Shown here: in pieces, positions 7,484 to 64,000 of the stretch
Numbering within the stretch: position 1 is the stretch's first letter
Layout: each line of letters begins with the position of its first letter
From: an uncultured Candidatus Saccharibacteria bacterium
Lineage (GTDB): Bacteria; Patescibacteriota; Minisyncoccia; UBA6257; GWB1-50-10
Assembly: GCA_964489845.1 (NCBI GenBank)
Contig: CAZAZV010000002.1
Coordinates: 770-64,769, forward strand
DNA: 64,000 bases
Direction of reading: 5' to 3'
Notes under the pieces: generated by a model
What the model was told of the DNA's origin: nothing
Databases searched by the model: none
What the model saw: only the letters and a program-made list of their open reading frames with translations
Made by a program: the position numbers and the translations under genes

Positions 7484-7484
7484 G

Positions 7485-9097: not shown

Positions 9098-9415
9098 TTA
9101 TGACGCCTTCGGAGCCGGTGCGGCCGCTGCTTCCTCGCCCGCCTTCGTCAACTCCTTCTGCATCTTGCCGCCGTGCCGGATAAACTTTCTCGTCGCGGCG
9201 AACTCCCCGAGCCGGTGGCCGATCATGTCTTCCGTCACGCGCACGGAAATGAAGTTCTTGCCGTTGTGCACTTCAAACTCGTATCCCACCATTTCCGGGG
9301 AAATCTCCGAACCCCTGGCCCACGTGCGAATCGGACCGTCATTCGGCTTGCGACGCTCCATTTTCTTCAAAAGCTTTGCGTCGACGTATGGTCCTTTCTT
9401 TAAACTTCTGCTCAT
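9098..9415 (-). CDS. rpsS: 30S ribosomal protein S19
   Basis: [12 protein letters not shown]...[20 protein letters not shown]. Confidence 0.92.
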
Positions 9416-9435: not shown

Positions 9436-10209
9436 TTATTTCCTGCTTTTGCGCTTCGGCTTCCGCCGCACGACGATGAATTGATTCGACGATTTCTTCC
9501 TGTTGCGCGTCTTCCTGCCTCCCGTCACGTTGCCCCAGATATCCTTCGGCCGCTTCGTGCCGCGCGGGGCGCGTCCTTCGCCGCCACCGTACGGATGGTC
9601 GACGGGGTTCATCACCGAACCGCGCACGATGGGTCTCCTCCCCCGGTGCCGCATCCGGCCCGCGTTCTTCACGCGTTCCATATTGTGTCCGCGGTTGCCG
9701 ACGGCGCCGATGGTGGCAAAGTTCCCCCAGTGCACGCGACGAACTTCTCCCGAAGGAAGCTTCAAATGCGTAAATCCGTCTTCCTGCGCGAGGACCTGGA
9801 GCGACGTACCCGCCGCTCTCCCGAGAATCGCTCGCTCGCCGGGACGGAGCGTCACGTTGTAAACGAAACTGCCGACGGGAATCCGCTCTATGAGCGTGCT
9901 GTTTCCCGCGGTCAGGGGCGCGGTGTCTCCCGTCTGAACCTCATGGCCCGCCGCCATTTCGTCCGCCGCGAGCACATAGCGCCGCTCGCCGTCTTGGTAG
10001 AGTAGCCGTGCGATGCGGGCGGTCCGGTTCGGGTCGTACTCGATCGCCTCGACGCGCGCGGGAATGCCCCGCTTGCGGTATTCGAAATCGATGAGGCGGT
10101 AGAGCCGCTTCTCGCCTCCGCCGCGATGGCGCGTGGTAATCCGGCCCGCGTTGTTGCGCGCGCCCGCCCGCTTCCCCCCATATGTCAGATGTTTCAACGG
10201 CTTCGCCAT
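9436..10209 (-). CDS. rplB: 50S ribosomal protein L2
   Basis: [15 protein letters not shown]...PSGEVRRV...[13 protein letters not shown]. Confidence 0.94.
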
Positions 10210-12283: not shown

Positions 12284-12313
12284 AGTGTACCTAAACGGAC
12301 AAAAAACAGTTAA
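12284..12313 (-). promoter_or_regulatory. Second copy of the TTAACT-18-TACACT promoter/5'UTR segment
   Basis: Near-identical to 11767-11812; overlaps the T-tract of the upstream terminator. Confidence 0.5.
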
Positions 12314-12341
12314 GAAAGCCCCGCGGGAGCGGGGCTTTCTT
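12312..12341 (-). terminator. Rho-independent terminator of the cohesin/dockerin operon
   Basis: aagaaagccccgc-ggga-gcggggctttctt followed on the minus strand by aactgTTTTTTgtccgttt, directly after the 12352 stop. Confidence 0.7.
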
Positions 12342-12351
12342 GGTTATTGTC

Positions 12352-13143
12352 CTATGAATGCTTCTTGCGTCGACTCCGGACACCACTGTAAATCGCGTAA
12401 CCGAGGAAGACGAGCACGACGATAATAGCTATGCCAAGGAAGATGCTATTTGTACCGAACGTCACGAATGTGGCAACTTGAGCAAGAATAGATCCCGGGG
12501 GCACAACGATAGGTTGCTCCGTCGTCGTTGCAAGCTGCTTACCGGAAGTCGTTGCTACTTCTGTTACGGGAGGCACAGTTTCCGTCGCGGGCTTCGAGGT
12601 CGGTGTTACTTGCGTAACCGGCGCTGTTTGCGTCGGCACCGATGGCGCCGCTATTGCTACCGTCGTGCGCACCGCTGCGCTCGCGAGCACGTTCTGATTC
12701 CCCGCGTCAAGCGTAAGCGAGGAATTATCAAGCGCGATGGTTCCGGTACCGCTCTTCTTAGCGTGGAACGTAACGGTCCCGAACGTGACTGCCGACGATA
12801 CGCCACCCGGATAACCGGCGGTCTTAACAAGAACACCGTTCGTGTTGTCGGTCAGGTCGTAACCGGACTGGGTAAGCGGCATCCAGGTATTCGCGAACGC
12901 AAACGAAGTAACTTCCAAGAGATTGGCGGGGTACTGGAGCTCCGTTTTGACGGTGTAGTTTTTCACTCCTCCTGGATTTACTCCAACCGTCAGTGTGAAA
13001 CTCTGGCCCTGGCTGACATTCACAGTAACCGGCGCGAAAGACACACTCGTCGCGGCAAGCGCAGGCACAACAAGAACGAATGCACCGGATATTCCTACTA
13101 ACAGGGCAACTATTGATCTCCGCATGATAGTTAAACTGTCCAA
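12352..13143 (-). CDS. Membrane-anchored cohesin-like domain protein (signal peptide, beta-sandwich domain, Thr/Pro linker, C-terminal TM anchor)
   Basis: N-terminal signal peptide; FTLTVGVNPGGVKNYTVKTELQYPANLLEVTSF resembles the cohesin core; TQTAPVTQVTPTSKPATETVPP linker; C-terminal TM FLGIAIIVVLVFLGYAIY plus RSRRKKHS. Confidence 0.55.
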   Translation of the reverse strand: MDSLTIMRRSIVALLVGISGAFVLVVPALAATSVSFAPVTVNVSQGQSFTLTVGVNPGGVKNYTVKTELQYPANLLEVTSFAFANTWMPLTQSGYDLTDNTNGVLVKTAGYPGGVSSAVTFGTVTFHAKKSGTGTIALDNSSLTLDAGNQNVLASAAVRTTVAIAAPSVPTQTAPVTQVTPTSKPATETVPPVTEVATTSGKQLATTTEQPIVVPPGSILAQVATFVTFGTNSIFLGIAIIVVLVFLGYAIYSGVRSRRKKHS

Positions 13144-14240
13144 TAAACCATGAGCAGGTTGAAATCAAGAACGTCGACCTTACCATCACTGTTGAAATCA
13201 GCCGTGTCACTCGCACCCGTATTCCCCCAATGTACCATGAGCGTGTTGAAATCCAACAGGTCAACCTTACCATCTTTGTTCATATCAACTTTCTGGGAAG
13301 CGGGAGTCACGCTTATTCCTCCGCCTCCGCCGCCTCCACCCCCACCACCACTTGGAGCCGGAGTAGAGACAGTGTGAGAAGCCAAGAAATAGGATGCCCT
13401 CGTTGCGCCGAAGGTGCATGCTCCAGCACCCACCACGCATGTTGCCGGTGACGTAATCCCATCGCTTGTCCAACCGGAACTACCGGTTGTCGAACGAGTG
13501 ACGTTCAATGTCTGACCATTGAAACTCGCGCCCACGAAGATGGTGATGCTTATCGGTGAACTGAATTGCAACTCGGTACCTACCAGTCCCCATTGAAGCG
13601 CCCCATCAGCCACTACGCCCGAACCGAGTCCGGAAAGCGAACTGACAGCGGTAGAACTCGCGGTTAGGTTATTGGCGTCAAAAGTTCCGCCCCCCGCTCT
13701 CGTAATCGTGGTACCCTGCGGAAGAACCACCACGCTCGTACCGCCACTCACTGCAATGCTCACCACCACCTGCTGGGTGGTATTGACGGAGGTAGCGCTT
13801 CCCGCGGCTCCGGAAACAGCGAGTGTTCCGTTGTCCAATAAACTCGTGAGATTGGTGCTGCTGACCTCCACTTGGTTGATGGCAAACGATAGATTCAACT
13901 GTTCAACCATACCACTCTCGAACTGGGCAATCTGCGGCGCTTCAATTCCGGAAACCGAGAAGTGAATAGTGTCACCCGTCTGCAAGTCATCTCCTTGAAC
14001 CAACAGTTTCTGGTCATAGGCGCCTGGACCTCCGTACTGTCCCGCTACCGCCGTTGTCACTCTTCCCTTTTCAACGCCGTTAACACTGGCTATGAGCACG
14101 GTACCGACAGGAGCAGGAGCGTTGTTTATGGTGAGATTGCCATAAAAGATGTGTGGTAATTGAGGTACCTGCGCAAGAGCGGCTATCGGTAACGCCAAAA
14201 GCGCGGCAGAAATAACAAGAGCTCGAATTGATTTTCTCAT
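13131..14240 (-). CDS. Secreted dockerin-containing protein (signal peptide, beta-rich domain, poly-Gly linker, type-I dockerin)
   Basis: C-terminus has two canonical dockerin repeats, DMNKDGKVDLLDFNTLMVHW and DFNSDGKVDVLDFNLLMVYW, after an 11-Gly linker. Confidence 0.75.
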   Translation of the reverse strand: MRKSIRALVISAALLALPIAALAQVPQLPHIFYGNLTINNAPAPVGTVLIASVNGVEKGRVTTAVAGQYGGPGAYDQKLLVQGDDLQTGDTIHFSVSGIEAPQIAQFESGMVEQLNLSFAINQVEVSSTNLTSLLDNGTLAVSGAAGSATSVNTTQQVVVSIAVSGGTSVVVLPQGTTITRAGGGTFDANNLTASSTAVSSLSGLGSGVVADGALQWGLVGTELQFSSPISITIFVGASFNGQTLNVTRSTTGSSGWTSDGITSPATCVVGAGACTFGATRASYFLASHTVSTPAPSGGGGGGGGGGGISVTPASQKVDMNKDGKVDLLDFNTLMVHWGNTGASDTADFNSDGKVDVLDFNLLMVYWTV

Positions 14241-14300
14241 AGGCGTAATGACTTCGAGGAACTCCCCCGACGTATTTTTGTCGGGGCGCCATCGTCAATA

Positions 14301-16967
14301 TTAGAGGTTGTTCTTCGTGAATGACTTGGCGGCATTCATAAAGACCCAGTAGCCGTCATGCGTGGAGAGGTCCTTTGCCGGCAATCCGGTAATGGGGTTT
14401 GCGTTCAGGTCTCTGTCCCCGTCGCTCGCCCATGGATTACTGCCGGAATCTTTCCGTGCGTTGTAGGTATCCGGTACGTAGAGCGTTATCATACCGGCCA
14501 CCGTTTCCGTGTTTTGGATGGACGAGAACTCGTCTTGTACCGTACCGGAATTATTCGTCCCGACCAAGTTCCATCCGGCGACGAGGTCTTTGCTTGTCTG
14601 TGACGGCGCACTGCTTGTGTCGGCGTACCTGAACCCTACGCCGCCACCACTATCTACCTTCGTGTAGAACGCGCTGATTGGTTTGACGATGTCCGCGTTA
14701 TCTGCGGCTGGCGAACCGAATGCCCCATTCCCATAAATGAGTAGTGCCACGGTCCCCGTCGCATTGTTATCCACAACCGCAGGTGCTTCAGAGAGAAGTT
14801 TCGGAGCGGAAATTAAAGCCCACGCATCTGCATCGGTGAGAGCGATGGTTTCGTCGTACGTATCTCCATTCGCTTCCAAGAGCCACGGCCGGTAACTGAC
14901 ATCCGCAGAAACCGCTCCGGCGGCAGGACCCGAAGCAGCGCCCCAGTAGTTATCAGTTGCATCAAGTGTTCCGGAACCTCGTGCGGCGTAACCGACCGCA
15001 GCCATCGAATTGTCATAGATACTGTTGTTGTGCACAACCGTCTCCGCGTCAATCGGCTGATTGACATATATCCCAGCAGCATTCCCGTATATCTCATTCC
15101 CCGCTACTGTCACCGCCGAAGAATCGGCGCGTACCGTCGAGGGCAAATTGGTGGTATAGTCGGTATTATCGAACGCAACGCCGGCACCTGCGGTATAGCC
15201 GTGGACTGCGTTGCCCGCTATCGAGGTCGCGTAGAACTGCCCGCCGATACCGGAGCCATTCGCGAGGGAATCGGTGCCTATGACTTCATTGTCAGAAATC
15301 ATACTGCTACTCAAATACCCCGTAATACCGAATTGGGAATTTTCTACTTTGTTGTTGGAGATGGTGGCTCGCGTGAGAACGCCGTCATTGGTATCTGCCG
15401 TATTGGCGTCATTGCCGCCGGTAATCCCACTCGTACCTGCACCTTTCACCAAGTTCTGCTCCACATCAGCTACCTTAGCTTGCCAGAGATTAATGCCATC
15501 AACACTCGCCGACTCAATAATGTTGTTTTTCACAACCACATTGTCCGTGACTCCTCTGACATGAATCGCCTTTGCCGGACTGCCGCCGATTGTGAAACCG
15601 TCGATGGTCACCGTACCAGTTATTGGTCCGAATGGACCGATTTGTACGGACCCGGACGGATCGCCGGAAGAAATGACGGATTCATCACCGCTTCGAGTTC
15701 TCGCATCATTACCTGCCTGTGCGCCGTTCAAGATAAGCGGCTTATTGATATGGAGCGTTTCACTATATGTTCCAGCTGCAACATTAATCGTGTCATCATT
15801 ACCCGCATTTGCAATCGCTTCAGCAATAGTGTTGTATCCGATCTTACTCGTCTCATTGAACGCGTTATAACTACGAGTTATGGAACAATCTGATGTTTCG
15901 CACCAAGGAGAGAACGAGACGGCTCCATCAAGACTGCTAGTTGCTGGGCCGGTCACGCTCCCCCAATAATTATTAGCCGCATTAATAGCTGGGCTTCCAG
16001 CGGTCGTTGAGATATTGTACTCGTTATCTGTAAACCTTACGTTAGTGATGCTAGATAGGATTCCCCCGCCATACGCAAGTACGCCCGCTGCAGTATCATC
16101 GTCAGGTGCATAGTTGAAATTGGAGATGTTTGCACCGGTAACAGACCCCGTAACAGTACCACCACCTCTATTCCACAAAACAATTCCATTCTGCGCAATT
16201 GCATCCGTCGGACCGGCGCCTGTAATGCTGCCACCAAAAACGGTTAAGGTAATGGTGGCATGTACGCCGCTCGTGGCACCATTGCCATTGATGGCATCAA
16301 TGCCGTTCTTCTGGAATCCAGAGATATCGCAATCACTCACGGTCAAATCTGCTGTTTGTTCGTTACCAGCGTCAACCGCTATTCCTTGTCCCGTTTGACT
16401 CCCGTTTATTGTATATGTACCGGCTATGGCACAATTTTCTAAACTACCCGTTGATGCATTCCAGAAAAGAAGAGCATCCGGACCACCGCTACCAGGCGCT
16501 TTCCCATTATCCTTAATACCCAAACTCTGGAGAGTAATATTGGTTGAGCTACTCACCAACACCGATACCTTCATGTTCGCGGTGTACTTGTGGGTAATAC
16601 CACTCGCAACGAGCATCGTCGGTTGTATAACGGTAGAGGACTTTCCAGCACCGATAATTAGTAAATCCGACTTATTGACCACTGAGAAACTTTCGTATTG
16701 ACCGGCTACGACGGTGATTGTATCGCCAGCGGACGCAGCATCAATAGCGGACTGAATCGAGCTGCAAACAGGATCAGTTGCACTGCATGTGCTGGTTGCA
16801 GACGAACCATCGACTGTCCACGACGTTGTCGCCGCTTGCGCAACACCCCCAAGGAACAAAAAACCGCTCACGAGTAACGCTGCGGTTATGATAACTGTAG
16901 AAACTTTGAGAACTGTTGAGTTGAAGAACGAAAAAGATTGTATAAGGGGTTCGCCCAAATGATTCAT
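14301..16967 (-). CDS. Secreted right-handed parallel beta-helix (PbH1) repeat protein, about 889 aa
   Basis: Signal/TM MNHLG...FLGGVAQA; many PbH1-type repeats (NNIIESASVDGINLW, ISNNKVENSQFGITG, GNAVHGYTAGAGVAFDNTDY, HNNSIYDNSMAAVG). Confidence 0.7.
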   Translation of the reverse strand: MNHLGEPLIQSFSFFNSTVLKVSTVIITAALLVSGFLFLGGVAQAATTSWTVDGSSATSTCSATDPVCSSIQSAIDAASAGDTITVVAGQYESFSVVNKSDLLIIGAGKSSTVIQPTMLVASGITHKYTANMKVSVLVSSSTNITLQSLGIKDNGKAPGSGGPDALLFWNASTGSLENCAIAGTYTINGSQTGQGIAVDAGNEQTADLTVSDCDISGFQKNGIDAINGNGATSGVHATITLTVFGGSITGAGPTDAIAQNGIVLWNRGGGTVTGSVTGANISNFNYAPDDDTAAGVLAYGGGILSSITNVRFTDNEYNISTTAGSPAINAANNYWGSVTGPATSSLDGAVSFSPWCETSDCSITRSYNAFNETSKIGYNTIAEAIANAGNDDTINVAAGTYSETLHINKPLILNGAQAGNDARTRSGDESVISSGDPSGSVQIGPFGPITGTVTIDGFTIGGSPAKAIHVRGVTDNVVVKNNIIESASVDGINLWQAKVADVEQNLVKGAGTSGITGGNDANTADTNDGVLTRATISNNKVENSQFGITGYLSSSMISDNEVIGTDSLANGSGIGGQFYATSIAGNAVHGYTAGAGVAFDNTDYTTNLPSTVRADSSAVTVAGNEIYGNAAGIYVNQPIDAETVVHNNSIYDNSMAAVGYAARGSGTLDATDNYWGAASGPAAGAVSADVSYRPWLLEANGDTYDETIALTDADAWALISAPKLLSEAPAVVDNNATGTVALLIYGNGAFGSPAADNADIVKPISAFYTKVDSGGGVGFRYADTSSAPSQTSKDLVAGWNLVGTNNSGTVQDEFSSIQNTETVAGMITLYVPDTYNARKDSGSNPWASDGDRDLNANPITGLPAKDLSTHDGYWVFMNAAKSFTKNNL

Positions 16968-17081
16968 ATTTTTAGGTGCTGTGGGGGCGTTTTGCAGAGA
17001 ACGTTCGACCTGCCATCCCGAGCAAATACCCCGCACATGTGGTGCTGAAATTAAGGAGCACCAAGTTTGGCCTTAGTTACG

Positions 17082-17109
17082 AGTGTAGAACCATTGAGCT
17101 CGATGTCAA
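17082..17109 (-). promoter_or_regulatory. Promoter TTGACA-16-TACACT for the beta-helix/dockerin/cohesin operon
   Basis: Minus strand reads TTGACAtcgagctcaatggttcTACACT about 110 nt upstream of the 16967 start. Confidence 0.5.
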
Positions 17110-27075: not shown

Positions 27076-28250
27076 CAATATCCCTCCAGGTGCTTCACCT
27101 TCCGGTGCTTCCGAATCTGCTCGATCGCCTTCGCCTCGATCTGCCGTATCCGCTCGCGCGTCACGCCGAAGTCCTTGCCGACTTCTTCCAGGGTGTGCGT
27201 GATGTTGTCCTCGAGCCCGAAGCGCATGGAAAGAATTTTCTGTTCCCGCTCGGTGAGGTCGACGAGAATGTCCCTGATTTGCTCCTTCAAAAGGGCGTAG
27301 TTCGCCTGCTCGTCCGGCGGAATGCTCTGCTCGTCGGGCAAGAGGTCCGAGAGCGTGGAGTCCTCCTCGCTGTCGCCGATGGGCATTTCGAGCGACAACA
27401 CTTCCTGCGAAATTTTCTGGATATACCGCACCTTTTCCACCGGCACGCCCATCTCGACGGCGATTTCCTCGGGGAGCGGCTCGCGCCCCAACTCCTGCAT
27501 CAGCTGCCGCCGCTCCTGCGTATACTTTGTAATCGTCTCCACCATGTGCACGGGGATGCGGATCGTGCGCGAGTAGTCGGCCAAAGCGCGCGTCACCGCC
27601 TGGCGTATCCACCACGTCGCATAGGTCGAGAACTTGAATCCTTTGGTGTAGTCGAATTTCTCGACCGCCCGCGTGAGTCCGATGTTCCCTTCCTGGATAA
27701 GGTCGAGGATGCTCATGTACGGGCTCCGGTTCACGTACCGCTTCGCGATGGACACGACGAGACGCAGGTTCGCCTGCACGAGTTTCTTGCGGGCTTCTTC
27801 GTCGCCCTGCTCGATGCGCTTCGCGAGTTCCTTTTCCTCGCGCGACGTGAGGAGCGGCGTTTCCCCGATCTCTTTCAGGTACATCTGCACGACATCCGGC
27901 ATCCCCTCGCTCGCACGGGTCGCGGCTTTCAATTCCTGCTTGCTTACTTCTTCGCTGTCCGCGGTAACCAGCGGCAGCGCCTCGAGCACTTTCACGCCTT
28001 CCGCTTCCAGTTTCTCGTACACGCTCTCGATAAGGGGGATGTTGCGCTCAATGTACGGGAAGTAGCGGAGTATTTCCACGTCCGTCACGAAACCGCGCTG
28101 CTTCCCCCGTGCGACGAGTGTCGCAAGATTCTCGTCGCGGTCTTCCCCTTCCGGAACGGCAATGTGCTGCTGCGTCTCGTGGCGCTTGAGCCCCGATTCG
28201 CTCTGTGCGGAAAATCCGCACACGCTGCAGATAAATGTTTTCTTAGCCAT
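27075..28250 (-). CDS. rpoD: RNA polymerase sigma-70 factor with N-terminal C2H2-like zinc finger
   Basis: Regions 2 and 4 ([42 protein letters not shown]; [23 protein letters not shown]); N-terminus [24 protein letters not shown]. Confidence 0.88.
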
Positions 28251-31098
28251 TGGTGCGCAACGTATCCAGTTCCCCCGAGAGTTCCGAAAATTGCTTCAGC
28301 AGCCGCTCGCGCTCGGCTTCTCCGATGACGGAAGCGATACGCGATTTGATTTCTTTCTGCTTCACTTTGAGCATCTCGATCCGCAGCTGCCGCATAAGTT
28401 CTTTGAGTTCGTCTGCCAGTTCCTCATGCGGAACATTGTTGAACAAATAACTCGCCTCGAGTTCCAGGAGTCCCCCCTCGGCCGTTCTGCGCAGGAGTAT
28501 GTCCTGGTAATGCTCCGGCAAAAGGTCCTGCTCCGATTCCACTTCAGCATAAAACGAGTCATCGGAGAACGCAACGGTGAGGAGCCGCCGCGCGATGCGG
28601 TCTATGCGTTTCACTTCGGCTTCCTGCGGCGTCTCCGCTTCGACCGGCGCCGGTCCGCCGGCTTTTACGGTCGCGAACGCCTCGCGGAGCATCTGCTCCG
28701 AAATGCCCGCTGCGCGGGAGAGTTCCTTGAGCCACATATCCTGCTCCACGGCGCTCTCAAGGCGCGAGATGAGCCGCAGCATCGTCCCCACCATCCGCTT
28801 CCGCGCCGCGGGGTCGAGCGTGCCGCCGAAACGGACGGCGAAGAGCCGCTTGAACGCGGGTTCGGCTTGCGCGACACGTTTTGCGAACCCCTCCGCGTCT
28901 CTTTCCACAAACTCCGCCGGGTCTTTAAAGGTGCCGAGATCAACCGCCTTGACATAAAAATCGAACGTCCCGAGGAGCTCGAGGGAACGCTCGAGCGCCT
29001 CGATGCCCGCCTCGTCGCTGTCGAAACTCACGACCGCCGTGTCGGTGAGCCGCCGCAACGCGGTGAGATGCGCCGGCGTCAAACTCGTCCCGCACACCGC
29101 GACGGCATTCGTCACGCCCGCCTGGTGCGCCATGAGGGCATCCATATATCCCTCCATGACGAAAACGCTTTTCTGCTGCGCGATGTCCCGCTTCGCCTGC
29201 GAGAACCCGTAGAGGAGTTTCGATTTTTGGAAAATCGGCGTCTCGGGAGAATTCACGTACTTGGGGTTATTGTCGTCGTCCGCGAGCACGCGCCCCGCGA
29301 AACCGACGACCCTGCCGATATTGTTCCAGAGCGGGAACATCACGCGGTTCGCGAAAAAATCTTTGTAGAGTCCTCCTCGCTTCACGGCAAAGCCCGCTTG
29401 GACGAGTGTCTCGATGGAATGTCCTTTGTGGAGGAGGTACACGGTGAGCGCGTCACCACCGGGCGCATAGCCGAGCTCAAAGCGTTTCGCTGTCTCGCCG
29501 GTGAGGCCGCGTCCCTTCAGGTACGCGATCGTTTCCGCGTTCTCTTTTAGCTTGCTCCTGAAGAAGTCCCGCGCGAGCTCGTTCACTTCGTACAATTCGG
29601 CGAAGCGGTGCTCCATGCCGCCCCGGCCGCGCGAAAGTTCGATACCCGCCCGCTCGGCGAGAAGCTGGAGCGCCTCGGGAAACTCAATGCCCTCGTAGAG
29701 CATCACGAACTTGATGACGTCTCCCCCCTGTCCGCAATTCGCCACCGCAAAATGATTTGCTACGTATGAATGGTCTTCGTCGACAGTTAAGTTATAGACA
29801 GGACCGGTATACGGTTCTTTCCACACTTCCTTTACGGGAAGGAGCCAATAACGCCTTCCTTCGACCTCCTCGTATATGAAGCTATGCTGGGACTTCGCCT
29901 CCTCCGACCAGAGGATTCTGTAGACCTCGCGATGATTCACGCCTCGCGCATCGTGCCTTGTCCCCCGAACTCCGAAAGAAGGAAAGAGGTTGTTTCTTAA
30001 GAGTATGTCAATAACCTGCTCAGCAAGAATTCTCGAAATACTCGTGATGCTTTTATGCGTTTTTGTGGAACGACTGAATATACCGGTATGCCCATCGCCT
30101 CTGAAAATGGCATCGACCAGCACCTTCTGCTTTTCTGGAGGTAAAACTTGGAACACAAAGGGTATGTGTTTATACTCTGCTCCCTTGCCGCAAAGATTCT
30201 CAAAAATATTGGCGAGCTGTGCATGGCACGCGGTAATTTCGAGACCTGTTTTCTTTGTCTTGTTCGGATTTCTTTCATAAATCTTCGCTTCAAGTCCGAA
30301 AACGTTTTTCACGAGACGGACGATATCGTCGGCAAATTCCCGCTCATGATTCCCCAAACTGAATCGGATATACGCCCGATGACTGCTTCCCTCAGCTATC
30401 CAATAACCGAGAAGTCTCAGAAAGTCGTCATCAAGGGCAATGTTGAGTGAAATATCCCGCGAATGAGGACCAAACGTATATCCCTTGGTCAAATAGTCAT
30501 TGAGGTCGATGCGGGTCAGTTCGGCAACCGAGTTCTCAATCGGATAAAACACAAAATCGGCCGGTGCAATGCTGCCCGCATTGATTTCGATGATACTTCC
30601 GTGTTGCCGCGCCGCCTCGGAGAGCGTACGGGCCGTGCCCCGCGATACCGCATCGCGGCACAGACGATAAAACTGTTTGGTTTTCTTGCGGTAAGAAGTT
30701 GCGGGTCGCAGAACCTTCAGCTTATGGTCAGCGGTCATGGATACTGTCTCATTAAGTTTTCTCGTTCTCACATGAACTAAATCGCCCACATAATTTCTCA
30801 CATGAGTCGCGAGTACTCTCCGAACCTTCCCCGAACCGGAGTAGACGTAATGATTCTCGTCAATGTCTTCTATGTTATGGAGACCAAAGGGAGTTTTTAC
30901 CTTCTGACCCGGCGGGAAACACCCGAAGCAGTGCCACATCCGTCGCTCGGGAGACACCATGAAGGACGGAGTTTTCTCCTGATGGAAGGGGCAGAGCGCT
31001 TTGTAGTTCTTGCCCGCCGGCCTCAGGTCGATGTATCCCTTTAACACATCGAGAATGTCGGTGCGCTCTTTCACGCGCTCCACGTCAGTTGTTGCCAT
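28243..31098 (-). CDS. dnaG: DNA primase DnaG interrupted by a 395-aa LAGLIDADG intein in the zinc-binding domain
   Basis: Exteins: [24 protein letters not shown] | [12 protein letters not shown], then TOPRIM ([17 protein letters not shown]...SFDSDEAG). Confidence 0.85.
29737..30921 (-). mobile_element. Intein (Cys1 ... Asn395, with a Cys at the following extein position) with a LAGLIDADG homing-endonuclease domain, inserted in the DnaG zinc ribbon
   Basis: Starts CFPPGQKV (block A), TADH (block B), [11 protein letters not shown] and [12 protein letters not shown] (LAGLIDADG blocks), ends ...HFAVAN followed by an extein Cys. Removal restores the HCFGCGQGGD primase consensus. Confidence 0.75.
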
Positions 31099-31953: not shown

Positions 31954-32406
31954 TTACGCCTCGAGTGTTTTGAAAACGACTTTCCCGGAGTAGTCGAGCG
32001 CGTCTTCCGCCTTGATTTTCTGGAGCGGCGGGAGGTTTGAAACAGGAACAAATTTATATTCTGAATGTTCGTGACTCAACGTGATGTGGCTCATATCTGA
32101 AACGGCGCATGTGAAAACCGCAAGCTGTGTATGGATGCGGGGAAGGAAGTAGATGCCGGTGAGCGTCTTCGGCTCGACGTCGAGTCCCGTCTCTTCCCGA
32201 CACTCGCGCTTGAGCGCCTTATGGAGCGTTTCCGTTTTCTCCGCCGCGCCGCCGGGCAAACCCCACTCGTCATCGTACGAACTGTGCAGGAGGAGAATTT
32301 CTCCGGCGCTATTCATGATAACTCCCTGCACGGCGAGGCCGGGCGGCGAGAGGCGCGCAACGAGGTCTCCGAAGAGATATACCATGCGCTTCAATACGTG
32401 TTTCAT
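31954..32406 (-). CDS. NUDIX hydrolase
   Basis: Nudix box GLPGGAAEKTETLHKALKRECREETGL. Confidence 0.8.
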   Translation of the reverse strand: MKHVLKRMVYLFGDLVARLSPPGLAVQGVIMNSAGEILLLHSSYDDEWGLPGGAAEKTETLHKALKRECREETGLDVEPKTLTGIYFLPRIHTQLAVFTCAVSDMSHITLSHEHSEYKFVPVSNLPPLQKIKAEDALDYSGKVVFKTLEA

Positions 32407-57289: not shown

Positions 57290-58195
57290 TCAATCCCCCT
57301 TGTTTCTGCCCTGCCACAGGTACAGGAGCGGGCTCGCCACGAAGATGGATGAATACGTTCCCGCGACGGTCCCGATGAGTACGGTAAGGAGGAACCCCAT
57401 GAGTGACGAGGGGCCGAAAAGGAGGAGCGCAATGAGCACGACGATGAGCGTGCCGGATGTATTCATGGACCGCATGAGGGTCTGATTCACGCTGTCGTTC
57501 ACAATGTCTCCGAGCGGGATCCGTTCGTTCTTCCGCTCGAGGAGGTGTTCGCGGATGCGGTCGAAGACCACAATCGTGTCGTGCACCGAGAAACCAACCG
57601 TCATCAGCAAGCCGACAAGTATCGTCGTGTCCACGTCGAAGAGACCGAAATGTCCGAAGAGTGCCACCGCGCCAAGCGGGATGCTCACGTCGTGAAACAG
57701 CGCGATGAGCGTCGAGAAGCCGTACTTCCACGAGGAAACCCTCGCCGCCGCCTTGCGGAACGCCCACCCGACAAAGAAGGTAATCGCCGCAATCGCGCCG
57801 ATGAGCGCCCAGAGCGACTGGCGCCACAATGCTTTGCTCACCGTCGGCCCGATACTCGAGAATCCGAGCGTCTGGAACGTTCCAAACGCCTTCGTGAGCG
57901 CCTGCTCGTACGCCGTCTTATCCGACGGCATCATCTGTTTCACCCGTATGACGATGCCCTCCCCCACCCGCTCGGTCGCCACATCGGCATGAAACGTTTT
58001 TTCGACGAACGCCCTCACCTGCTCCGGAGAAACGGTTGTCGAGGAAGCAAACTGCACGCTCCACGACGTGCCACCGGACAAATCCGCACCCGGCTGCAAA
58101 CCGAACACGAACACGCACACCCACGCCGCGAAAACGAGCGCGAGCGCGACACCCAGGAAAACGTTTCTGTGTTTTATGACGTCAAGCTTATGCAT
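57290..58195 (-). CDS. secF: Protein-export membrane protein SecF
   Basis: 301 aa, 6 TM, follows secD. Confidence 0.85.
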   Translation of the reverse strand: MHKLDVIKHRNVFLGVALALVFAAWVCVFVFGLQPGADLSGGTSWSVQFASSTTVSPEQVRAFVEKTFHADVATERVGEGIVIRVKQMMPSDKTAYEQALTKAFGTFQTLGFSSIGPTVSKALWRQSLWALIGAIAAITFFVGWAFRKAAARVSSWKYGFSTLIALFHDVSIPLGAVALFGHFGLFDVDTTILVGLLMTVGFSVHDTIVVFDRIREHLLERKNERIPLGDIVNDSVNQTLMRSMNTSGTLIVVLIALLLFGPSSLMGFLLTVLIGTVAGTYSSIFVASPLLYLWQGRNKGD

Positions 58196-59456
58196 GGTTT
58201 GATTCCGATTCAGTGCCGGCAGTCCGCGGCGCCTTGCTCGCGCGGAGTATCGTCCTCGTGAACACGACAGCCGTCAGCATGCTTGTCGCGACACCAATGA
58301 AGAGCGCGAGCGCGAACCCGCGGACGAAACTCGTCGTAATGTAGAAAAGAATCACGGCGGAGATCATCGTCGCGATATTCGAATCGCGTATGGAACTCCA
58401 CGCGCGCTTGAAACCGTTCTCCACCGCCTGCGCGTACGGTATTCCCTGCCGCAGTTCTTCTTTCATTCGCTCGAAGACGAGCACGTTCGCATCGACCGCC
58501 ATGCCGAGCGACAGCACGATACCGGCGATGCTCGAGAGCGAGAGTGTCACGGGAACCAGCTTGAAAATCGTAAGGTTCAGGAGCGCATAGACGATGAGCG
58601 CGATGACGGAATAAATTCCCAGGCGGCGGTAGTACAGGAGCATGTAGAGCGCGACGAACGCGAACCCGACGACACCCGCGACGAGCGCCTCATGGAACGA
58701 TTTTGCTCCGAGGAGCGGGCTCACGGTTTCTTGGTCGACGAGCTGTATCGGGGCCGGAAGCGCGCCGGCATTGAACCGCGCGGCGAGCTGCTGCGCCGCT
58801 TCGACGGTGAAGTTGCCCGAAATCTGGGCCTTGCCTCCGGTAATTTCTTCTCGCACCGTCGGCTCCTCGAGCAGCTTGTTGTCCAAAAAGACCGCAATCG
58901 GCTTGCCGATGTTCTGCCGCGTCAGGTCGGCGAAGAGTTTCGCGCCGTTTTGCGTCAGTTCGAAATTGACGACGGGCGCGCTCGTGTATTGGTCGAAGGA
59001 AACGCTCGCGCCGGTCACGTCGCTCCCCGTAAGCCCTGTCGGGGTGTACGTCTCCGTCCCGTCTTTTGCGACCGTCACGGTGCGGAAATCCAGGGTCGGC
59101 GTCGTGCCGATTTCCGCAATGGCTTCGTCGAGGTTCTTGATGCCCGCGAGTTCAACGACCAGCCGTTCCTCGCTCCCTACTCTCTTGATGTATACCTGCG
59201 GCTCGCTCACGCCGAACAGGTCGACGCGTTTCTCGATGACGTCGCGCAAGCCGGAGAGCACACTCGACTCGTCGGAAGCGGGAACTTTACTCATATCGAT
59301 GCTGTACTCGAGATGGCTGCCGCCCGCCACATCAAGTCCTAGCCGCCACGGCCTGAAATCGGAAAGCTGGCTCCAGACCGGTTGGTACACGAAGAGCGCT
59401 CCGAACAGCGCGATGACGGTGAAAATGATGAGAATGGAAGAGTTCCGCTGCGTCAT
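58188..59456 (-). CDS. secD: Protein-export membrane protein SecD
   Basis: 422 aa; periplasmic domain plus C-terminal 6 TM; LGLDVAGGSHL. Confidence 0.88.
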   Translation of the reverse strand: MTQRNSSILIIFTVIALFGALFVYQPVWSQLSDFRPWRLGLDVAGGSHLEYSIDMSKVPASDESSVLSGLRDVIEKRVDLFGVSEPQVYIKRVGSEERLVVELAGIKNLDEAIAEIGTTPTLDFRTVTVAKDGTETYTPTGLTGSDVTGASVSFDQYTSAPVVNFELTQNGAKLFADLTRQNIGKPIAVFLDNKLLEEPTVREEITGGKAQISGNFTVEAAQQLAARFNAGALPAPIQLVDQETVSPLLGAKSFHEALVAGVVGFAFVALYMLLYYRRLGIYSVIALIVYALLNLTIFKLVPVTLSLSSIAGIVLSLGMAVDANVLVFERMKEELRQGIPYAQAVENGFKRAWSSIRDSNIATMISAVILFYITTSFVRGFALALFIGVATSMLTAVVFTRTILRASKAPRTAGTESESNHA

Positions 59457-59474
59457 AAAATGTTCACGGTAATA

Positions 59475-60698
59475 CTACTCCAAACTTCTCCTTCCCCGCA
59501 ACTCCCGGTGGTACGTGATGGCGAAGCGGTGCGCCTCGTCCCGCACGCGGATGAGCGTCTCCTCCGAGGTGCCGCGCGGCACGCGGCCGATAAACTCGTT
59601 CTTCTTCCGCTTCGGCCCTTTCGCAATACCGACGACCGGCACGGAAATATCGTGTTTCGCAAGCACTTCCTGCACCGCATGAACCTGCGCCACACCGCCA
59701 TCGACGAGGACAGTGTCCGGCAGCGGCCAGTTGTCCTGTGGCGGAATGTGCCGCAGGCGCCGCGCGAGCACTTCCTTCAGCATGCCGACATCGCCACCCG
59801 CTTCGGTCCGGAAAGCGCGGATGCGGAATTTGCGGTACTCGCTCCGCGAGGGTTTGCCGTTCCTGAACACGACCATCACGCCAACCGCCGACGTGCCCGA
59901 TATATTCGAGATGTCGTACCCCTCTATCCGTTCCGTTTGTTCCTCTCGCGCCGCATCTCTGCTGATGAGCGCGATATCGTTCACGTGTGTGAGGGCGAAA
60001 AGCTGCCGCTTCGCGCGCTCCGCCGCTTCGTATTCCTGCCGCTTCGCGTACGTTTTCATATCCCGCTCAAGCCGCCGGACGAGCGCCTGCCGTTCGCCTT
60101 TCAAAACCTGTTTCAGTCCACGAAGGTCGCGCCGGTACTTTTCCTTTTCGAAATTCCCCGTGCACGTCCCCGGGCAAAGACCGAGTTCCGCATCGAGGCA
60201 CGGCCGCTTGAACGTACCGATGTCGTGCGGGTTGTGCGTGCTGAACGGGAAAATCTTCCGAAGGAGCTTCAGCGCGACCGTAATCTGCGAACTTTGCACG
60301 AAGGGACCGAAGGCGCGCGCTTTTTCCTGCTCCGTGAGTTCCTTTCCGCGCATAAGTTTCACCTGGGGTGCCGCGCCGCGCGTCACAACGACATAGAGAA
60401 AACTCTTATCGTCTTTCTCCTTGACGTTGTACGGCGGGTAGTACCGCTTGATGAGCTGCGACTCGAGCATGAGTGCTTCGAGCGCGGTGTCGGTCTCCTT
60501 CGTCTCGATACCGTCTATCAAGTTCACCATGCGCTCAATGCGGCTGTCGTGGGGACGCTCGAAATAGCTTCGCACGCGGCGCGACAAATTCCCCGCCTTT
60601 CCGACGTACAGAATCTTCCCCCGCTTGTCCTTCATCAAGTACACGCCCGGCGTCTGCGGAATTTTCTCCAGTATCTTTTTGGTAGTATCTTGGATCAT
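59475..60698 (-). CDS. uvrC: Excinuclease ABC subunit C, short form (GIY-YIG plus RNase H-like, no C-terminal HhH)
   Basis: GVYLMKDKRGKILYVGKAGNLSRRVRSYF GIY-YIG; UvrBC motif region. Confidence 0.75.
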   Translation of the reverse strand: MIQDTTKKILEKIPQTPGVYLMKDKRGKILYVGKAGNLSRRVRSYFERPHDSRIERMVNLIDGIETKETDTALEALMLESQLIKRYYPPYNVKEKDDKSFLYVVVTRGAAPQVKLMRGKELTEQEKARAFGPFVQSSQITVALKLLRKIFPFSTHNPHDIGTFKRPCLDAELGLCPGTCTGNFEKEKYRRDLRGLKQVLKGERQALVRRLERDMKTYAKRQEYEAAERAKRQLFALTHVNDIALISRDAAREEQTERIEGYDISNISGTSAVGVMVVFRNGKPSRSEYRKFRIRAFRTEAGGDVGMLKEVLARRLRHIPPQDNWPLPDTVLVDGGVAQVHAVQEVLAKHDISVPVVGIAKGPKRKKNEFIGRVPRGTSEETLIRVRDEAHRFAITYHRELRGRRSLE

Positions 60699-60705
60699 TT
60701 ATTCA

Positions 60706-61029
60706 CTACCTCACTTCCGACCCGGGCATAACTTTCTTGTCGGGCGTGAGAAGCGCCAAACTGCCCCCATCATCGCTCGCGGCAAGGAGCATCCCCTGGC
60801 TCTCGAACCCCATGAGCGTCCGCGGCGCGAGGTTTACGACAACAACAATCTGCCGCCCGACGAGTTCATCGGCCTCGTAATACTTCGCGATACCGGCGAC
60901 GATTTGACGTTCCTCCGTCCCGATATCAACGCGCAGTTTCATAAGCTTCTCCGAGTCCTCAACCCGCTCCGCGGCGAGAACCTTCCCGACCCGCAATTCA
61001 ACGTTTTTAAAATCTTCAAAAGATATCAT
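60706..61029 (-). CDS. tRNA-binding domain protein (CsaA/Myf-like OB fold)
   Basis: LRVGKVLAAERVEDSEKLMKLRVDIGTEERQIVAGIAKYY...QIVVVVNLAPRTLMGFESQGMLLAA. Confidence 0.75.
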   Translation of the reverse strand: MISFEDFKNVELRVGKVLAAERVEDSEKLMKLRVDIGTEERQIVAGIAKYYEADELVGRQIVVVVNLAPRTLMGFESQGMLLAASDDGGSLALLTPDKKVMPGSEVR

Positions 61030-61056
61030 GGAATTATTTTATCATCACTTGATTAC

Positions 61057-61397
61057 CTATTGCAGCCGGCTCCCGAGCCCCACATCCGGCTTGCCGGGCG
61101 TGATAAGGACCCACCCGCCGCCTTTCATGTTCCTAAATCCGAGCGTCAGAACCTCGGAAGAAAAGGACGCGATGCGCTTCAGCGGGAAATTCACGACGCA
61201 GACGACAAGCATACTAGACAGTTCTTCTTTGGTATGCGCCCCGACGGCCCGCACGCTTGACGTTTTTACACCGAGCTCCGGCCCGAAATCTATCTTCAGC
61301 TTGAACGCCGGCATCCGCGCTTCGGGAAACTCATTGACCTCAACGACTTTCCCGACACGAATATCAATTTTTCAAAATCTTCGTATGCAACGGTCAT
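61057..61397 (-). pseudogene. Tandem paralogue of the tRNA-binding protein, disrupted by a -1 frameshift in an A5 run
   Basis: Frame 1 gives MTVAYEDFEK; after gaaaaattg the alternative frame gives IDIRVGKVVEVNEFPEARMPAFKLKIDFG... A 6th A would restore EKIDIRVGK. Confidence 0.55.
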
Positions 61398-61580
61398 GAG
61401 ATCCCCTTCGGCCGCTCTTTTCAGTTTTTCCTCATCGAATTTCACAGCTCCGCGTTTCGCAAAGTGATCATCTCCATCTTATTTTTATCATATAAGGTTA
61501 TATGATAGTATTTTGGCTTCCTGTAATTTCGGGAGGGTCGAGAACTACAAAAATTAAAGCATGGTGGCTGTCTTCTCGCT

Positions 61581-61628
61581 GCTCAATATCTTTAGAACGA
61601 GATGTTCTCTGAATTTCACCATTTTCAT
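61581..61628 (-). repeat. 48-nt exact direct repeat = duplicated 5' end (MKMVKFREHLVLKILS) of the ASCH gene at 62656-62859
   Basis: Identical to 62812-62859; minus strand reads ATGAAAATGGTGAAATTCAGAGAACATCTCGTTCTAAAGATATTGAGC, then a stop after 6 more codons. Confidence 0.75.
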
Positions 61629-62165
61629 ACCGGTTTCGATACAAGTTTCAGGTACACCTCGCGCAAGAGTTTAGTATCATCCAGCGCGTGATGCTCCCGA
61701 TATTTCGTGTGGTCAATCCCCAACTCGTGGTAAAAATTGTTTTTGTCGCCATGGTAATAACTCTCCGGACTCACGCCAAAACCGAAAAGGATTGACGCGA
61801 AATCAATCGGTATCCAGTGAAACGGTGCCACCAGTCCCGCATAATTTATAGAGATAGAGCGCATCAAATTGATTCACGTACGCGACCATAAAGGGTTCAC
61901 CATCTCCCACGAACTTTTTTATTCTCTTCGCCGCCTCTTCTCTCCCGATTTTCTCTTCCGTAAGGAATGGGACAACGTGCTCCTGTACCCATTTGTCCAC
62001 AGCACCATCCCATTCCAGTTCGACGTATAATTCCTCGCCATTCAGTTTCACGAGTCCTACGGAAAGCAACTCTCCTTTATAAGGGTCTAAGCTCGTAAAT
62101 TCGGTATCGACGAATACGATATTATCTGAAAAAGGCGTGAATGGTTTCATAATTTCTTCGGCCAT
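61625..62165 (-). pseudogene. DEDDh (DnaQ-like) 3'-5' exonuclease split by a frameshift near 61850
   Basis: Exo I VFVDTEFTSLDP and Exo II-like AYVNQFDALYL in one frame; Exo III HHALDDTKLLREVY in the overlapping frame (ORFs 61803-62165 and 61625-61867). Confidence 0.55.
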
Positions 62166-62701
62166 ATTGCCAGAAAGTAAGCACTCGAATCGGGTACGTT
62201 ATTGAACCACGCGAATCGCAAATGTTCTGCTCCTATCGTATGGCTCTTTCCGTCTTCCGGATCATTATATCGAAAAGCATCTTTCTCACCCCGGTAGCCA
62301 GTAATAACAATAAAATGACCGGCCTTCGTCAGAGGTAAGCGATGAAGCAGTGAGTAACGGATGTTTACGATAACCGGCACCCCCCGCTTTAGAAAAGTTA
62401 TGATATCCTTCGTATCCGGCAGTTTCAGCTTCGCGCCCCCATCAGCGAGTTTCCTATTGTACGAGAAACAGGAAATGTTAAACCCGAGTTTCCCAGCAAA
62501 GTCTGCGAGTTTCGTTGTTTTCACGCCGTAACTTTTCAGACCACCAACTTCCCGTATTATTTCTTTCTCGGGTATATCCCGTCCCCAGAAAGATAACACC
62601 ATCCTCAAAGAGGTTGTTCCACATGTATTTTTGCGCTGTTTGAATTTCGGTACGTTTATAAACATCTCCTGATTTTCGAAACACTTCTTACCGTAATCCA
62701 T
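62147..62701 (-). CDS. Papain-like (C39-like) cysteine peptidase
   Basis: QRKNTCGTTSLRMVLSFWG catalytic Cys context; downstream His in GHFIVITGY. Confidence 0.5.
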   Translation of the reverse strand: MDYGKKCFENQEMFINVPKFKQRKNTCGTTSLRMVLSFWGRDIPEKEIIREVGGLKSYGVKTTKLADFAGKLGFNISCFSYNRKLADGGAKLKLPDTKDIITFLKRGVPVIVNIRYSLLHRLPLTKAGHFIVITGYRGEKDAFRYNDPEDGKSHTIGAEHLRFAWFNNVPDSSAYFLAIWPKKL

Positions 62702-62859
62702 GCGGACATCGCGCCGAATGTTTCTCCCGTGTTCCAGTTCACAAGCTCAATGCGGTCCCCTTCCTGCAAATCCTTGTCGTCGAAAAGCCGCCACGTAACC
62801 GTCTTCTCGCCGCTCAATATCTTTAGAACGAGATGTTCTCTGAATTTCACCATTTTCAT
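62656..62859 (-). CDS. Mini ASCH-domain protein (67 aa)
   Basis: EHLVLKILSGEKTVTWR...FGAMSAWITVRSVSKI; paralogous to 63296-63727. Confidence 0.5.
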   Translation of the reverse strand: MKMVKFREHLVLKILSGEKTVTWRLFDDKDLQEGDRIELVNWNTGETFGAMSAWITVRSVSKIRRCL

Positions 62860-63299
62860 ACTCTCCTAAACTCATAATACATCCTAATGCATTCATCTTC
62901 GTCTCGAACAAGCTCCATCATCAACGCTTCTTCCGGTGAAACCCACCGGTGTTCCCGTAACTCGTCGGCTTTCAGTACAATCTCCGGCAAAATATTAAAT
63001 TCTATTCGAAACATATGAAATATGAAGTGATGTTCCGGCCACACCACATATACTTTCGTTAAATATTGCAGCGCCGCCTGCGATACATCCTGTCCGATTT
63101 CTTCCCTGATTTCTCTTGCCATCGCCTCCGATACATCCTCGCCAGCATCTACCTTACCAGCCAGAACACCCCACTTGTCTCCTTCTGGTTTATGCTTAAG
63201 ACGACGTAAAAGCAAGATCTTACCATCATGCTCTATGAAACAACTCACCACTTCGGGTATTGTCGGGTTAAATTCTTGTGGAATCTCTTTATATATCAT
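62856..63299 (-). CDS. NUDIX hydrolase
   Basis: GVLAGKVDAGEDVSEAMAREIREEIGQDV Nudix box. Confidence 0.8.
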   Translation of the reverse strand: MIYKEIPQEFNPTIPEVVSCFIEHDGKILLLRRLKHKPEGDKWGVLAGKVDAGEDVSEAMAREIREEIGQDVSQAALQYLTKVYVVWPEHHFIFHMFRIEFNILPEIVLKADELREHRWVSPEEALMMELVRDEDECIRMYYEFRRV

Positions 63300-63727
63300 C
63301 GCTGTATCTTTGAAATATCATCCACGGTAATCCACGCAGACATCATGCCAAATCCGGTCTTGTCGATTTCGAATGGCTCGATTTCCCGCGGGCTCTTGAG
63401 GAAGATAAACATACCATACTGCTTATCCCTGAATCGTTCAAAGAAGGCGGGTACGTCGGCTTCCTCAAGCCCGTCATCCTTGTAGTACCTATCGAGCAAT
63501 TCCCTGACTCGTTTCGACGTCAAATCGGCGAATTGCACTACCTTCTCAACTTCCGCTCTCACGCTCACCGGCTCGCCGGAGTTCTTGAAGTAAACGGTTT
63601 CCCCGGGCTTTACGGCATCCCACGGCTTACACTTCGTCACGGACCAGCGCGATTCAATCGTCTTCCGCCCGTCTAAGATTTTCGGCAAGAGTCCCCACGA
63701 TTTGCGCATAATTGCCACGTGTTCCAT
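63296..63727 (-). CDS. ASCH-domain protein
   Basis: LPKILDGRKTIESRW...FGMMSAWITVDDISKIQR. Confidence 0.6.
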   Translation of the reverse strand: MEHVAIMRKSWGLLPKILDGRKTIESRWSVTKCKPWDAVKPGETVYFKNSGEPVSVRAEVEKVVQFADLTSKRVRELLDRYYKDDGLEEADVPAFFERFRDKQYGMFIFLKSPREIEPFEIDKTGFGMMSAWITVDDISKIQR

Positions 63728-63730
63728 ATC

Positions 63731-64000
63731 TCACTTCAAAACTTTCTTCAGATATTTCCCCGTTTCGCTGCCGGCAACCTGGGAGACCTCTTCCGGCGTA
63801 CCTTCGGCGACGACGTGGCCGCCTTTCACGCCCCCGCCGGGGCCGAGGTCGATAATCCAGTCAGCCGACTTTATCACGTCCAGATTGTGCTCGATGACGA
63901 GGATGGTATTCCCCCGCTCCACGAGTTTCTGCAGTACGTCGAGAAGTTTCTGCACGTCGTCAAAGTGGAGTCCGGTTGTCGGTTCGTCGAGCAAATAGAG
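63731..64000 (-). CDS. uvrA: Excinuclease ABC subunit A, C-terminal fragment (gene continues beyond the window end)
   Basis: [54 protein letters not shown]. Confidence 0.85.

Follow-up and report, generated by a model that had tools for sequence, protein, structure and literature searches.

In a 64,000-nucleotide (nt) stretch of genomic DNA from an uncultured Candidatus Saccharibacteria bacterium (GenBank assembly GCA_964489845.1, contig CAZAZV010000002.1; the whole stretch is called the window here), a 61-nt direct repeat flanks genes encoding a C39-like cysteine peptidase and a DEDDh exonuclease. A preliminary description made from the sequence took this arrangement for an insertion with a long target duplication or for a cassette swap. 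The present analysis indicates that the repeat is probably the 5' head common to two decayed copies of a single ASCH gene (ASCH110) in a recombination scar and not the footprint of a mobile insertion. The evidence lies in the ancestral position of the exonuclease gene and of the first ASCH110 copy and in the chimeric structure of the open reading frame (ORF) that holds the second. For orientation, the transcription order is the uvrA 3' end, a 143-amino-acid (aa) ASCH-like gene (ASCH143), a NUDIX gene, a 67-codon ORF (mini-ASCH), the C39_2 peptidase gene, the split DEDDh exonuclease gene, a 24-codon ORF, a split csaA-type gene, tRNA_bind, uvrC, and secD/secF.

A repeat search over positions 58000 to 64000 places the two copies at 61570 to 61630 (R1) and 62801 to 62861 (R2), with 98% identity and a spacing of 1,231 nt. 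They are equal at 60 of 61 positions, with the sole mismatch at 61580 (T) and 62811 (C), and they share an exact core of 50 nt (61581 to 61630 and 62812 to 62861), which occurs twice in the window and in none of 100 dinucleotide-preserving shuffles. The exact 48-nt match noted previously (61581 to 61628 and 62812 to 62859) sits within this core, and its reading as a duplicated gene 5' end was correct, the copies being the heads of two copies of one ASCH gene. Its extent had been put at the first 16 codons; on the minus strand, the repeat in fact begins 2 nt 5' of the ATG, spans almost 20 codons, and reads MKMVKFREHLVLKILS(G/S)EKT. Similarly, the dead-end ORF in copy 1 has 24 codons plus a stop (61554 to 61628), not 22. 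R1 carries a G17S change at a glycine that is nearly invariant in the alignment of ASCH110 homologues. The last sense codon and stop (GTA TGA) of the NUDIX gene fall inside R2, and those of the exonuclease gene fall inside R1.

Raw-read evidence was taken from Logan unitigs (k = 31 graph) of runs SRR12217123 and SRR12217122. Unitig L001 (SRR12217123) corresponds to positions 61601 to 62841 of the window, while L002 (SRR12217123) and L003 (SRR12217122) both begin at 62832. All three terminate exactly 30 nt into the 50-nt core, which is how a k = 31 graph behaves at a true repeat, and thus the repeat is real in the raw-read assemblies. The NUDIX-into-repeat joint, the exonuclease-into-repeat joint, and the exonuclease frameshift are present in these assemblies as well. 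A further unitig, L004 (SRR12217123), spans 58822 to 61330 and ends inside the csaA pseudogene at a nonrepeat site. This stop at 61330/61331 could reflect a strain variant or a drop in coverage, and positions 61331 to 61600 were not recovered from Logan.

One syntenic organism (L012, L013, and L045), at about 80% nucleotide identity, served as the outgroup. The order in L012 is uvrB, uvrA, a NUDIX-like ORF, ASCH143, the exonuclease gene, an ASCH gene (106 aa), a palindrome, a TrpR-like gene, a second palindrome, three small genes, tRNA_bind, and uvrC, with secD and secF farther on. By blastn, the minus strand of the window is collinear with L012 at uvrA (80%), tRNA_bind (81%), and uvrC (76%). 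The exonuclease gene and the first 65 nt of the ASCH gene that follows it form a single 589-nt block with 83% identity. Because this collinear block crosses the gene junction in L012, the joint between the exonuclease gene and copy 1 is ancestral. Separate matches to L012 cover ASCH codons 1 to 49 at 62859 to 62712 (a 148-nt block) and T2, a fragment of an ASCH143-type 3' tail described below. Each repeat copy is therefore collinear with a bona fide gene copy of L012, R1 in the 589-nt block and R2 in the 148-nt block, and the copies match the L012 head at 50 to 51 of 61 positions (51 for R2). Relative to L012, the window has in addition the NUDIX gene (together with T1, the native ASCH143 tail), a second ASCH head (codons 1 to 49), T2, and the C39 gene, whereas the exonuclease gene is not extra. 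In the comparison with related genomes that was proposed earlier as a way of finding the locus without the insert, the one syntenic relative lacks the C39 gene but already has the exonuclease gene and copy 1.

No strain-level relative or empty site was found in the collections, in which exact protein matches came only from the source contig and from Logan unitigs of SRR12217122 and SRR12217123. A scan of genome contigs with ASCH143 (32 loci) and a scan of metagenome contigs with the ASCH110 alignment (80 loci) yielded no further syntenic organism. Homologues of ASCH110 and ASCH143 elsewhere are not in synteny, although ASCH110, ASCH143, and NUDIX genes lie near each other in five loci (L058, L059, L076, L077, and L082). 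A 70% identical ASCH110 homologue (P0028) was considered as a second outgroup and rejected, as its context (TsaD-ASCH-M16 peptidase) is unrelated. In L012, the NUDIX-like ORF between uvrA and ASCH143 (7366 to 8045) is broken by a run of N; the window has no ORF in this place, as only 4 nt separate the end of uvrA from the start of ASCH143.

Downstream of R1, 53 nt were compared with the 3' end and spacer of the L012 ASCH gene. A first local alignment of this segment was not significant, but the global collinear alignment, evaluated with controls, was: its score of 6 compares with -7.7 ± 3.8 for shuffles, of which 1 in 2,000 reached that value, and none of 486 control segments did so. The proximal 25 nt match at 17 positions, and we accepted the proximal ~45 nt as homologous. 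The AT-rich palindrome that follows aligns with L012 at 9354 to 9390 and at 9919 to 9952 (blastn, 96 to 97%) and has an RNA fold z score of -2.6. Since both the remnant and the palindrome are collinear with L012, copy 1 represents the resident ASCH110 gene, which on this alignment has lost about 240 internal nt (roughly codons 21 to 100). The two palindrome copies of L012 bracket a Trp_repressor-family gene that the window lacks, and the palindrome may serve that gene as operator or terminator or may be a point at which it recombines.

The ORF that holds R2 had been described as a mini-ASCH gene. It has 67 codons (62656 to 62859) and does not stand as a complete gene, as its 54 homologues (the window's own protein left out) are 98 to 118 aa long and match only its first ~48 to 57 residues. 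After TGETFG, the ORF continues with AMSAWITVRSVSKIRRCL, which is homologous to the ASCH143 tail FGMMSAWITVDDISKIQR and to the tail of the L012 orthologue, FGAMAAWITVNKVSKIRK. Homology to ASCH110 ends and homology to the ASCH143 tail begins within TTCGG(C)GCG, a microhomology of 5 to 8 nt, which joins codon 49 of ASCH110 to codon ~125 of a gene of the ASCH143 type. Judged by its sequence, the mini-ASCH is a truncated chimera of ASCH110 codons 1 to 49 and an 18-codon ASCH143-type tail fragment. A chimeric joint of this kind, at a microhomology between nonhomologous positions, is a mark of a recombination or segmental-duplication scar. As a consequence of the two truncations, no intact ASCH110 gene is left at the locus.

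The origin of the tail fragment was examined in several ways. Among 32 relatives of ASCH143 in metagenome-assembled genomes (MAGs) of candidate phyla radiation (CPR) bacteria and archaea, 30 align through residue 140 to 143, so the tail is native to the ASCH143 family. The fragment at 62718 to 62663 matches L012 8427 to 8482 at 78.6% (blastn), and tblastn with ASCH143 residues 126 to 143 also locates T2. Within the window, the motif GATGTCNGCNTGGATTACNGT is restricted to T1 and T2, and none of 100 shuffles contained two matches. Furthermore, T2 enters the C39 start codon in the same register as T1 enters the NUDIX ATG. Over 54 nt, T1 and T2 share 35 identities, T1 and L012 share 37, and T2 and L012 share 42. 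T2 thus looks like the resident, L012-like tail, and T1 with the NUDIX gene looks like the more foreign part. ASCH143 overall is 80.7% identical to L012 8050 to 8473. Members of the 143-aa ASCH-like family are 42 to 72% identical between CPR bacteria and many archaeal MAGs (L013 to L044) labeled Nanoarchaeota, Micrarchaeota, Woesearchaeota, Bathyarchaeota, and others, a distribution that suggests wide horizontal spread. L043 has only an ASCH143 tail fragment (residues 99 to 142), about 800 nt upstream of a tRNA_bind gene.

The favored reading may be set out as follows. The basic unit, single in L012, consists of ASCH143, a cargo gene (the exonuclease gene), ASCH110, and the palindrome. The window contains two head-to-tail units, each made of an ASCH143 tail, cargo, and an ASCH110 head, joined at TTCGG(C)GCG. 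The first runs from ASCH143 with T1 through the NUDIX gene to ASCH110 codons 1 to 49, which hold R2, and the second runs from T2 through the C39 and exonuclease genes to the ASCH110 remnant, which holds R1, and the palindrome. Such a structure may have arisen when two versions of the locus, ASCH143-NUDIX-ASCH110 and ASCH143-C39-exonuclease-ASCH110, underwent one unequal or illegitimate exchange at the TTCGG microhomology, either between sister chromosomes or with DNA of a related strain; the latter case would be homology-facilitated illegitimate recombination (HFIR). It may also have arisen from two complete neighboring units that a deletion fused, or by tandem duplication followed by cargo replacement. 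All three origins would require a later internal deletion of ~240 nt in the distal ASCH110, and subsequent decay would include the 2-nt deletion that kills the exonuclease gene and the 1-nt deletion that kills csaA. As R1 and R2 agree at 60 of 61 positions and each agrees with L012 at 50 to 51, the heads were either recently duplicated or homogenized by gene conversion, which would have acted while longer copies of the ASCH head still existed.

Several observations weigh against this reading. It depends on a single syntenic outgroup at ~80% nucleotide identity, which is too little to settle how many events took place and in what order, and which may itself be derived. The contrast between the repeat copies (98%) and the tails (65%) is significant (Fisher P = 1.5e-6), so one duplication is insufficient and an extra step, such as replacement of cargo or tail or gene conversion, is needed. 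The sliding identity of ASCH143 to L012 gave no clear breakpoint step, and neither parental allele (ASCH143-NUDIX-ASCH110 or ASCH143-C39-exonuclease-ASCH110) was found in the scans with ASCH143 and ASCH110.

The same contrast would be explained if the ASCH heads were old paralogues, as old as T1 and T2, with their near identity due to gene conversion instead of recent duplication. Direct paralogues 1.2 to 1.7 kb apart commonly convert each other, and ASCH110 codons 1 to 49 differ from L012 (77.7% identity) to the same extent as the remainder of the locus does. The limits of any conversion tract can no longer be traced, as the copies cease to be homologous at the deletion junction. We regard this alternative as unlikely, although with an appreciable chance of being right; it would alter only the dating, leaving the anatomy and the conclusion of a recombination scar unchanged. 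An assembly artefact, in which the ASCH head common to two co-existing strains led the assembler to join their differing versions of a hypervariable island, receives very little credence from us. The contig was assembled from a metagenome, the island lies about 1 kb from the end of the 64,879-nt contig, and the stop of L004 at 61330 without a repeat hints at local heterogeneity or low coverage. However, the raw-read graph shows the repeat on either side of the unique segment, and the NUDIX gene enters the repeat in two separate runs. Any linear genome with the segment must hence hold the repeat twice, which makes the assembled path the minimal explanation, and the mismatch at 61580/62811 tells the two copies apart. 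Campbell-type integration of a 1,231-bp circle (ASCH head, C39, and exonuclease), possibly still excising, would mean that the chromosome really runs from the NUDIX gene through the repeat to the remnant, with or without the circle. In the k = 31 graph, the 1,181-nt unique segment does close into a loop at the node of the repeat, a pattern that fits a circle or a tandem array equally well, and a repeat of 50 to 61 nt is long enough for some RecA-mediated exchange. Nevertheless, a circle seems very unlikely, since the exonuclease gene is chromosomal at this position in L012 and 1.2 kb with no replication or recombination gene would be implausible as a stable replicon. Normal Illumina reads are also longer than the 61-nt repeat, and reads that span it probably resolved the 64.9-kb NCBI contig, which counts against the circle.

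It is highly improbable that a mobile cassette of the C39 and exonuclease genes inserted into an intact mini-ASCH gene and duplicated 48 to 61 nt of target, even though the direct repeat flanks two genes with a base composition foreign to the genome and C39 homologues occur in many unrelated contexts, as would be the case for a frequently transferred gene. The exonuclease gene with copy 1, the ASCH 3' remnant, and the palindrome are all collinear with L012; the target gene is restored on neither side, both copies being truncated; and C39 and exonuclease genes are neighbors in no other locus examined. Between the repeats there are only the C39 and exonuclease genes, with no transposase or integrase, and the repeat search found no inverted repeats near 61631 or 62800 that could mark its termini. 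No tyrosine or serine recombinase domain was detected in any ORF of the island, whose flanks are uvrA, tRNA_bind, uvrC, and secDF. Target duplications of transposons and insertion sequences are typically 2 to 14 bp. The present repeat is 61 nt, and the DNA that it flanks is not new to the site, as the exonuclease gene and copy 1 are already in L012. An att-type duplication, which preserves the target gene, does not describe the locus either, one ASCH110 copy having 49 codons and a foreign tail and the other the ~240-nt deletion. For these reasons, the insertion with a long target duplication suggested in the preliminary description is not supported. The suggestion of a cassette swap fares better in that L012 has different cargo at the same position; the exonuclease gene itself is resident.

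Coordinates of the island features in the window, with their closest correspondences (aa, amino acids; nt, nucleotides)
Feature	Positions	Strand	Remarks
tRNA_bind gene, conserved	60706..61029	-	Followed by uvrC; distal boundary of the variable island; Pfam 1.6e-32; 80.9% nt identity to L012 10919-11241
csaA-type tRNA-binding gene	61057..61445	-	1-nt deletion near 61366-61372; L012 has other genes here
AT-rich perfect palindrome TATCATATAAGGTTATATGATA (TATCATATAA-GG-TTATATGATA)	61486..61516	.	End of the ASCH110 unit; single in the window
ASCH110 3'-end remnant, stop, and downstream spacer	61517..61569	-	Collinear with L012 in a global alignment, except for the first 9 nt (61561-61569), which match nothing
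R1 (repeat copy 1)	61570..61630	-	Head of the resident ASCH110 gene, after the exonuclease gene
DEDDh 3'-5' exonuclease pseudogene	61625..62150	-	Full length except for a 2-nt deletion near 61827/61828; orthologue L012 8480-9007
C39-like cysteine peptidase gene	62147..62665	-	172 aa, intact; Pfam Peptidase_C39_2 2.3e-19; absent from L012; stop overlaps exonuclease start
T2	62656..62718	-	ASCH143-type 3' tail fragment (AMSAWITVRSVSKIRR + CL*); in-frame fusion with codon 49 of ASCH110
ASCH110 head	62712..62859	-	Codons 1-49 of an ASCH family of ~107-113 codons; 77.7% nt identity to L012 9004-9151
R2 (repeat copy 2)	62801..62861	-	Head of the chimeric 67-codon ORF
NUDIX hydrolase gene	62856..63299	-	147 aa, intact; Pfam NUDIX 3.2e-20; absent here in the L012 blastn map
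ASCH143	63296..63727	-	Intact 143-aa ASCH-like gene, first of the island, directly after uvrA; Pfam ASCH E = 0.023 (weak); stop overlaps NUDIX start
T1	63297..63350	-	Native ASCH143 3' tail (FGMMSAWITVDDISKIQR), ends at the NUDIX ATG

The description of the interval as carrying a frameshifted DEDDh exonuclease gene and a C39-like peptidase gene was confirmed by the Peptidase_C39_2 match (2.3e-19) and by 528 homologues of the exonuclease (E ≤ 0.001), the best of which is 83% identical (P0081, on L012). The C39 start is the ATG at 62665 to 62663 (MFINVPKF), as placed by the N termini of its homologues, and the exonuclease start, the ATG at 62150 to 62148 (MKPFTPF), corresponds to that of the orthologue. 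Compared with the L012 orthologue, the exonuclease gene lacks 2 nt, and this frameshift is also found in unitig L001; a homopolymer sequencing error was rejected as its cause because two nucleotides are deleted and the Logan unitig repeats the change. Homologues of the C39 peptidase are at most 63% identical, and the contexts of five of them are all different. In L126, a full-length ASCH110-family gene is followed by C39 with an ATGA overlap, the sole such case among the C39 contexts viewed. A conserved C39-exonuclease pair was rejected, as the two were adjacent in no other locus examined. Neither a relative of the C39 peptidase nor a copy of the repeat turned up in the viral contig collection, and a phage origin was rejected on this basis. 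PADLOC gave only a generic DEDDh match (1.5e-9) and the candidate NUDIX family PDC-S07, with none for C39, either ASCH, or csaA; a known anti-phage defense system was rejected, as none of these matches is convincing.

Overall, the stretch from uvrA to tRNA_bind and uvrC is an accessory island of low guanine-plus-cytosine (GC) content whose genes, all on the minus strand, are chained by ATGA overlaps. The local island of NUDIX, ASCH, and tRNA-binding genes in the preliminary description is thus supported by gene content and by GC content, which is near 0.45 over ~61.1 to 63.7 kb (range, 0.38 to 0.54) compared with about 0.58 in the remaining window. The island is low in GC in L012 as well. Stop/start overlaps of 4 nt (ATGA) occur at ASCH143/NUDIX, NUDIX/ASCH head, C39/exonuclease, and exonuclease/ASCH head, and the same overlaps are found in L012. 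No Rfam match (E ≤ 1) was obtained in the repeat or island, where promoter- and terminator-like sites were not above shuffled expectation; a structured RNA or a regulatory element was therefore rejected.

After correction of the frameshift, the csaA product scores 120.5 bits against TIGR02222 (CsaA), for which the NCBIfam cutoff is 119.65. This apparently broken gene adjoins the intact and distantly related tRNA_bind gene. At its position, L012 has four other small genes, which indicates that the island has a second variable section. The adjacent UvrC is short in both organisms, at 407 aa in the window (59475 to 60698, minus strand) and 378 aa as called in L012 (11625 to 12761), with GIY-YIG, UvrC_M, and RNaseH-like domains and no further C-terminal domain reported. 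The usual length of UvrC is about 600 aa.

Elsewhere in the window, the ORF for DnaG primase (28243 to 31098, minus strand; 951 aa) is interrupted by an intein that includes a homing-endonuclease domain of the LAGLIDADG type (Pfam LAGLIDADG_3, 7.8e-12; the Intein_splicing match is weak) and coincides with a low-GC patch at 30 to 31 kb. A second NUDIX gene (31954 to 32406, minus strand; 150 aa), 26% identical to that of the island, lies in the lower-GC stretch at 30 to 33 kb. Another lower-GC patch (12300 to 17100, minus strand; 0.48 to 0.54) encodes a 911-aa beta-helix protein, a 369-aa dockerin-domain protein, and a 263-aa ORF with no Pfam match, which are probably surface or accessory genes.

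For annotation, the 65- to 67-aa ASCH ORF, the 24-codon ORF, the split exonuclease gene, and the split csaA gene are best entered as pseudogene fragments and not as small proteins, and it would be wrong to regard the C39 and exonuclease genes as a mobile cassette or as a module that functions together. The repeat, at 50 to 61 nt, is a substrate for RecA-type deletion, which predicts variants that lack the 1,231-bp C39-exonuclease segment. The locus offers a base-resolved example of how accessory islands in reduced Patescibacteria genomes acquire cargo when small genes, paralogous or allelic, recombine, and how deletions later remove it. A bolder proposal is that the ASCH143 tail and the ASCH110 head may act as conserved homology arms of an integrase-free hot spot for cargo exchange between uvrA and uvrC in this lineage of Patescibacteria, in which whole ORFs (exonuclease, NUDIX, and C39) are swapped at ATGA overlaps and the window is caught as a two-unit tandem intermediate. 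We consider this unlikely; if it is true and recurrent, such a hot spot would give ultra-small genomes a separate means of shuffling accessory genes for RNA and nucleotide housekeeping.

Among known systems, gene-end duplications of the attL/attR type resemble the window in that its repeat copies a gene end, but the island lacks a recombinase gene, the repeats enclose no more than 1.2 kb, and an intact gene is restored at neither of them. Mosaicism at gene boundaries, as in integron arrays, phage morons, and hot spots, is a closer likeness, since ORF-sized cargo varies between conserved flanks (exonuclease in L012; NUDIX and C39 with exonuclease in the window) with joints exactly at start and stop codons. 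Unlike those systems, the window has no phage context and no repeated intergenic linker, and its flanks are the coding sequences of two ASCH genes; nor were integron features found, the island ORFs encoding no integrase and the genes abutting by ATGA overlaps with no attC-sized spacers or attC-like site.

HFIR (de Vries & Wackernagel 2002) is known, according to the summary in PMC6382021, in naturally transformable bacteria that take up related DNA, and it forms joints of 3 to 10 bp. The window is similar in having a single new joint, formed at the short microhomology TTCGG(C)GCG, beside ordinary homology; foreign or allelic cargo would have been added and whatever donor and recipient share would have been duplicated. 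Intragenomic unequal exchange or simple deletion between adjacent units fits the window equally well. Tandem segmental duplication with pseudogenization likewise gives head-to-tail units whose joint holds a chimeric ORF, followed by deletions and frameshifts. In contrast to that model, the units of the window carry unlike cargo (NUDIX versus C39 and exonuclease) and tails that are only 65% identical, and thus plain duplication is not sufficient. Seen beside these systems, the locus is ordinary in kind, a scar of genome evolution.

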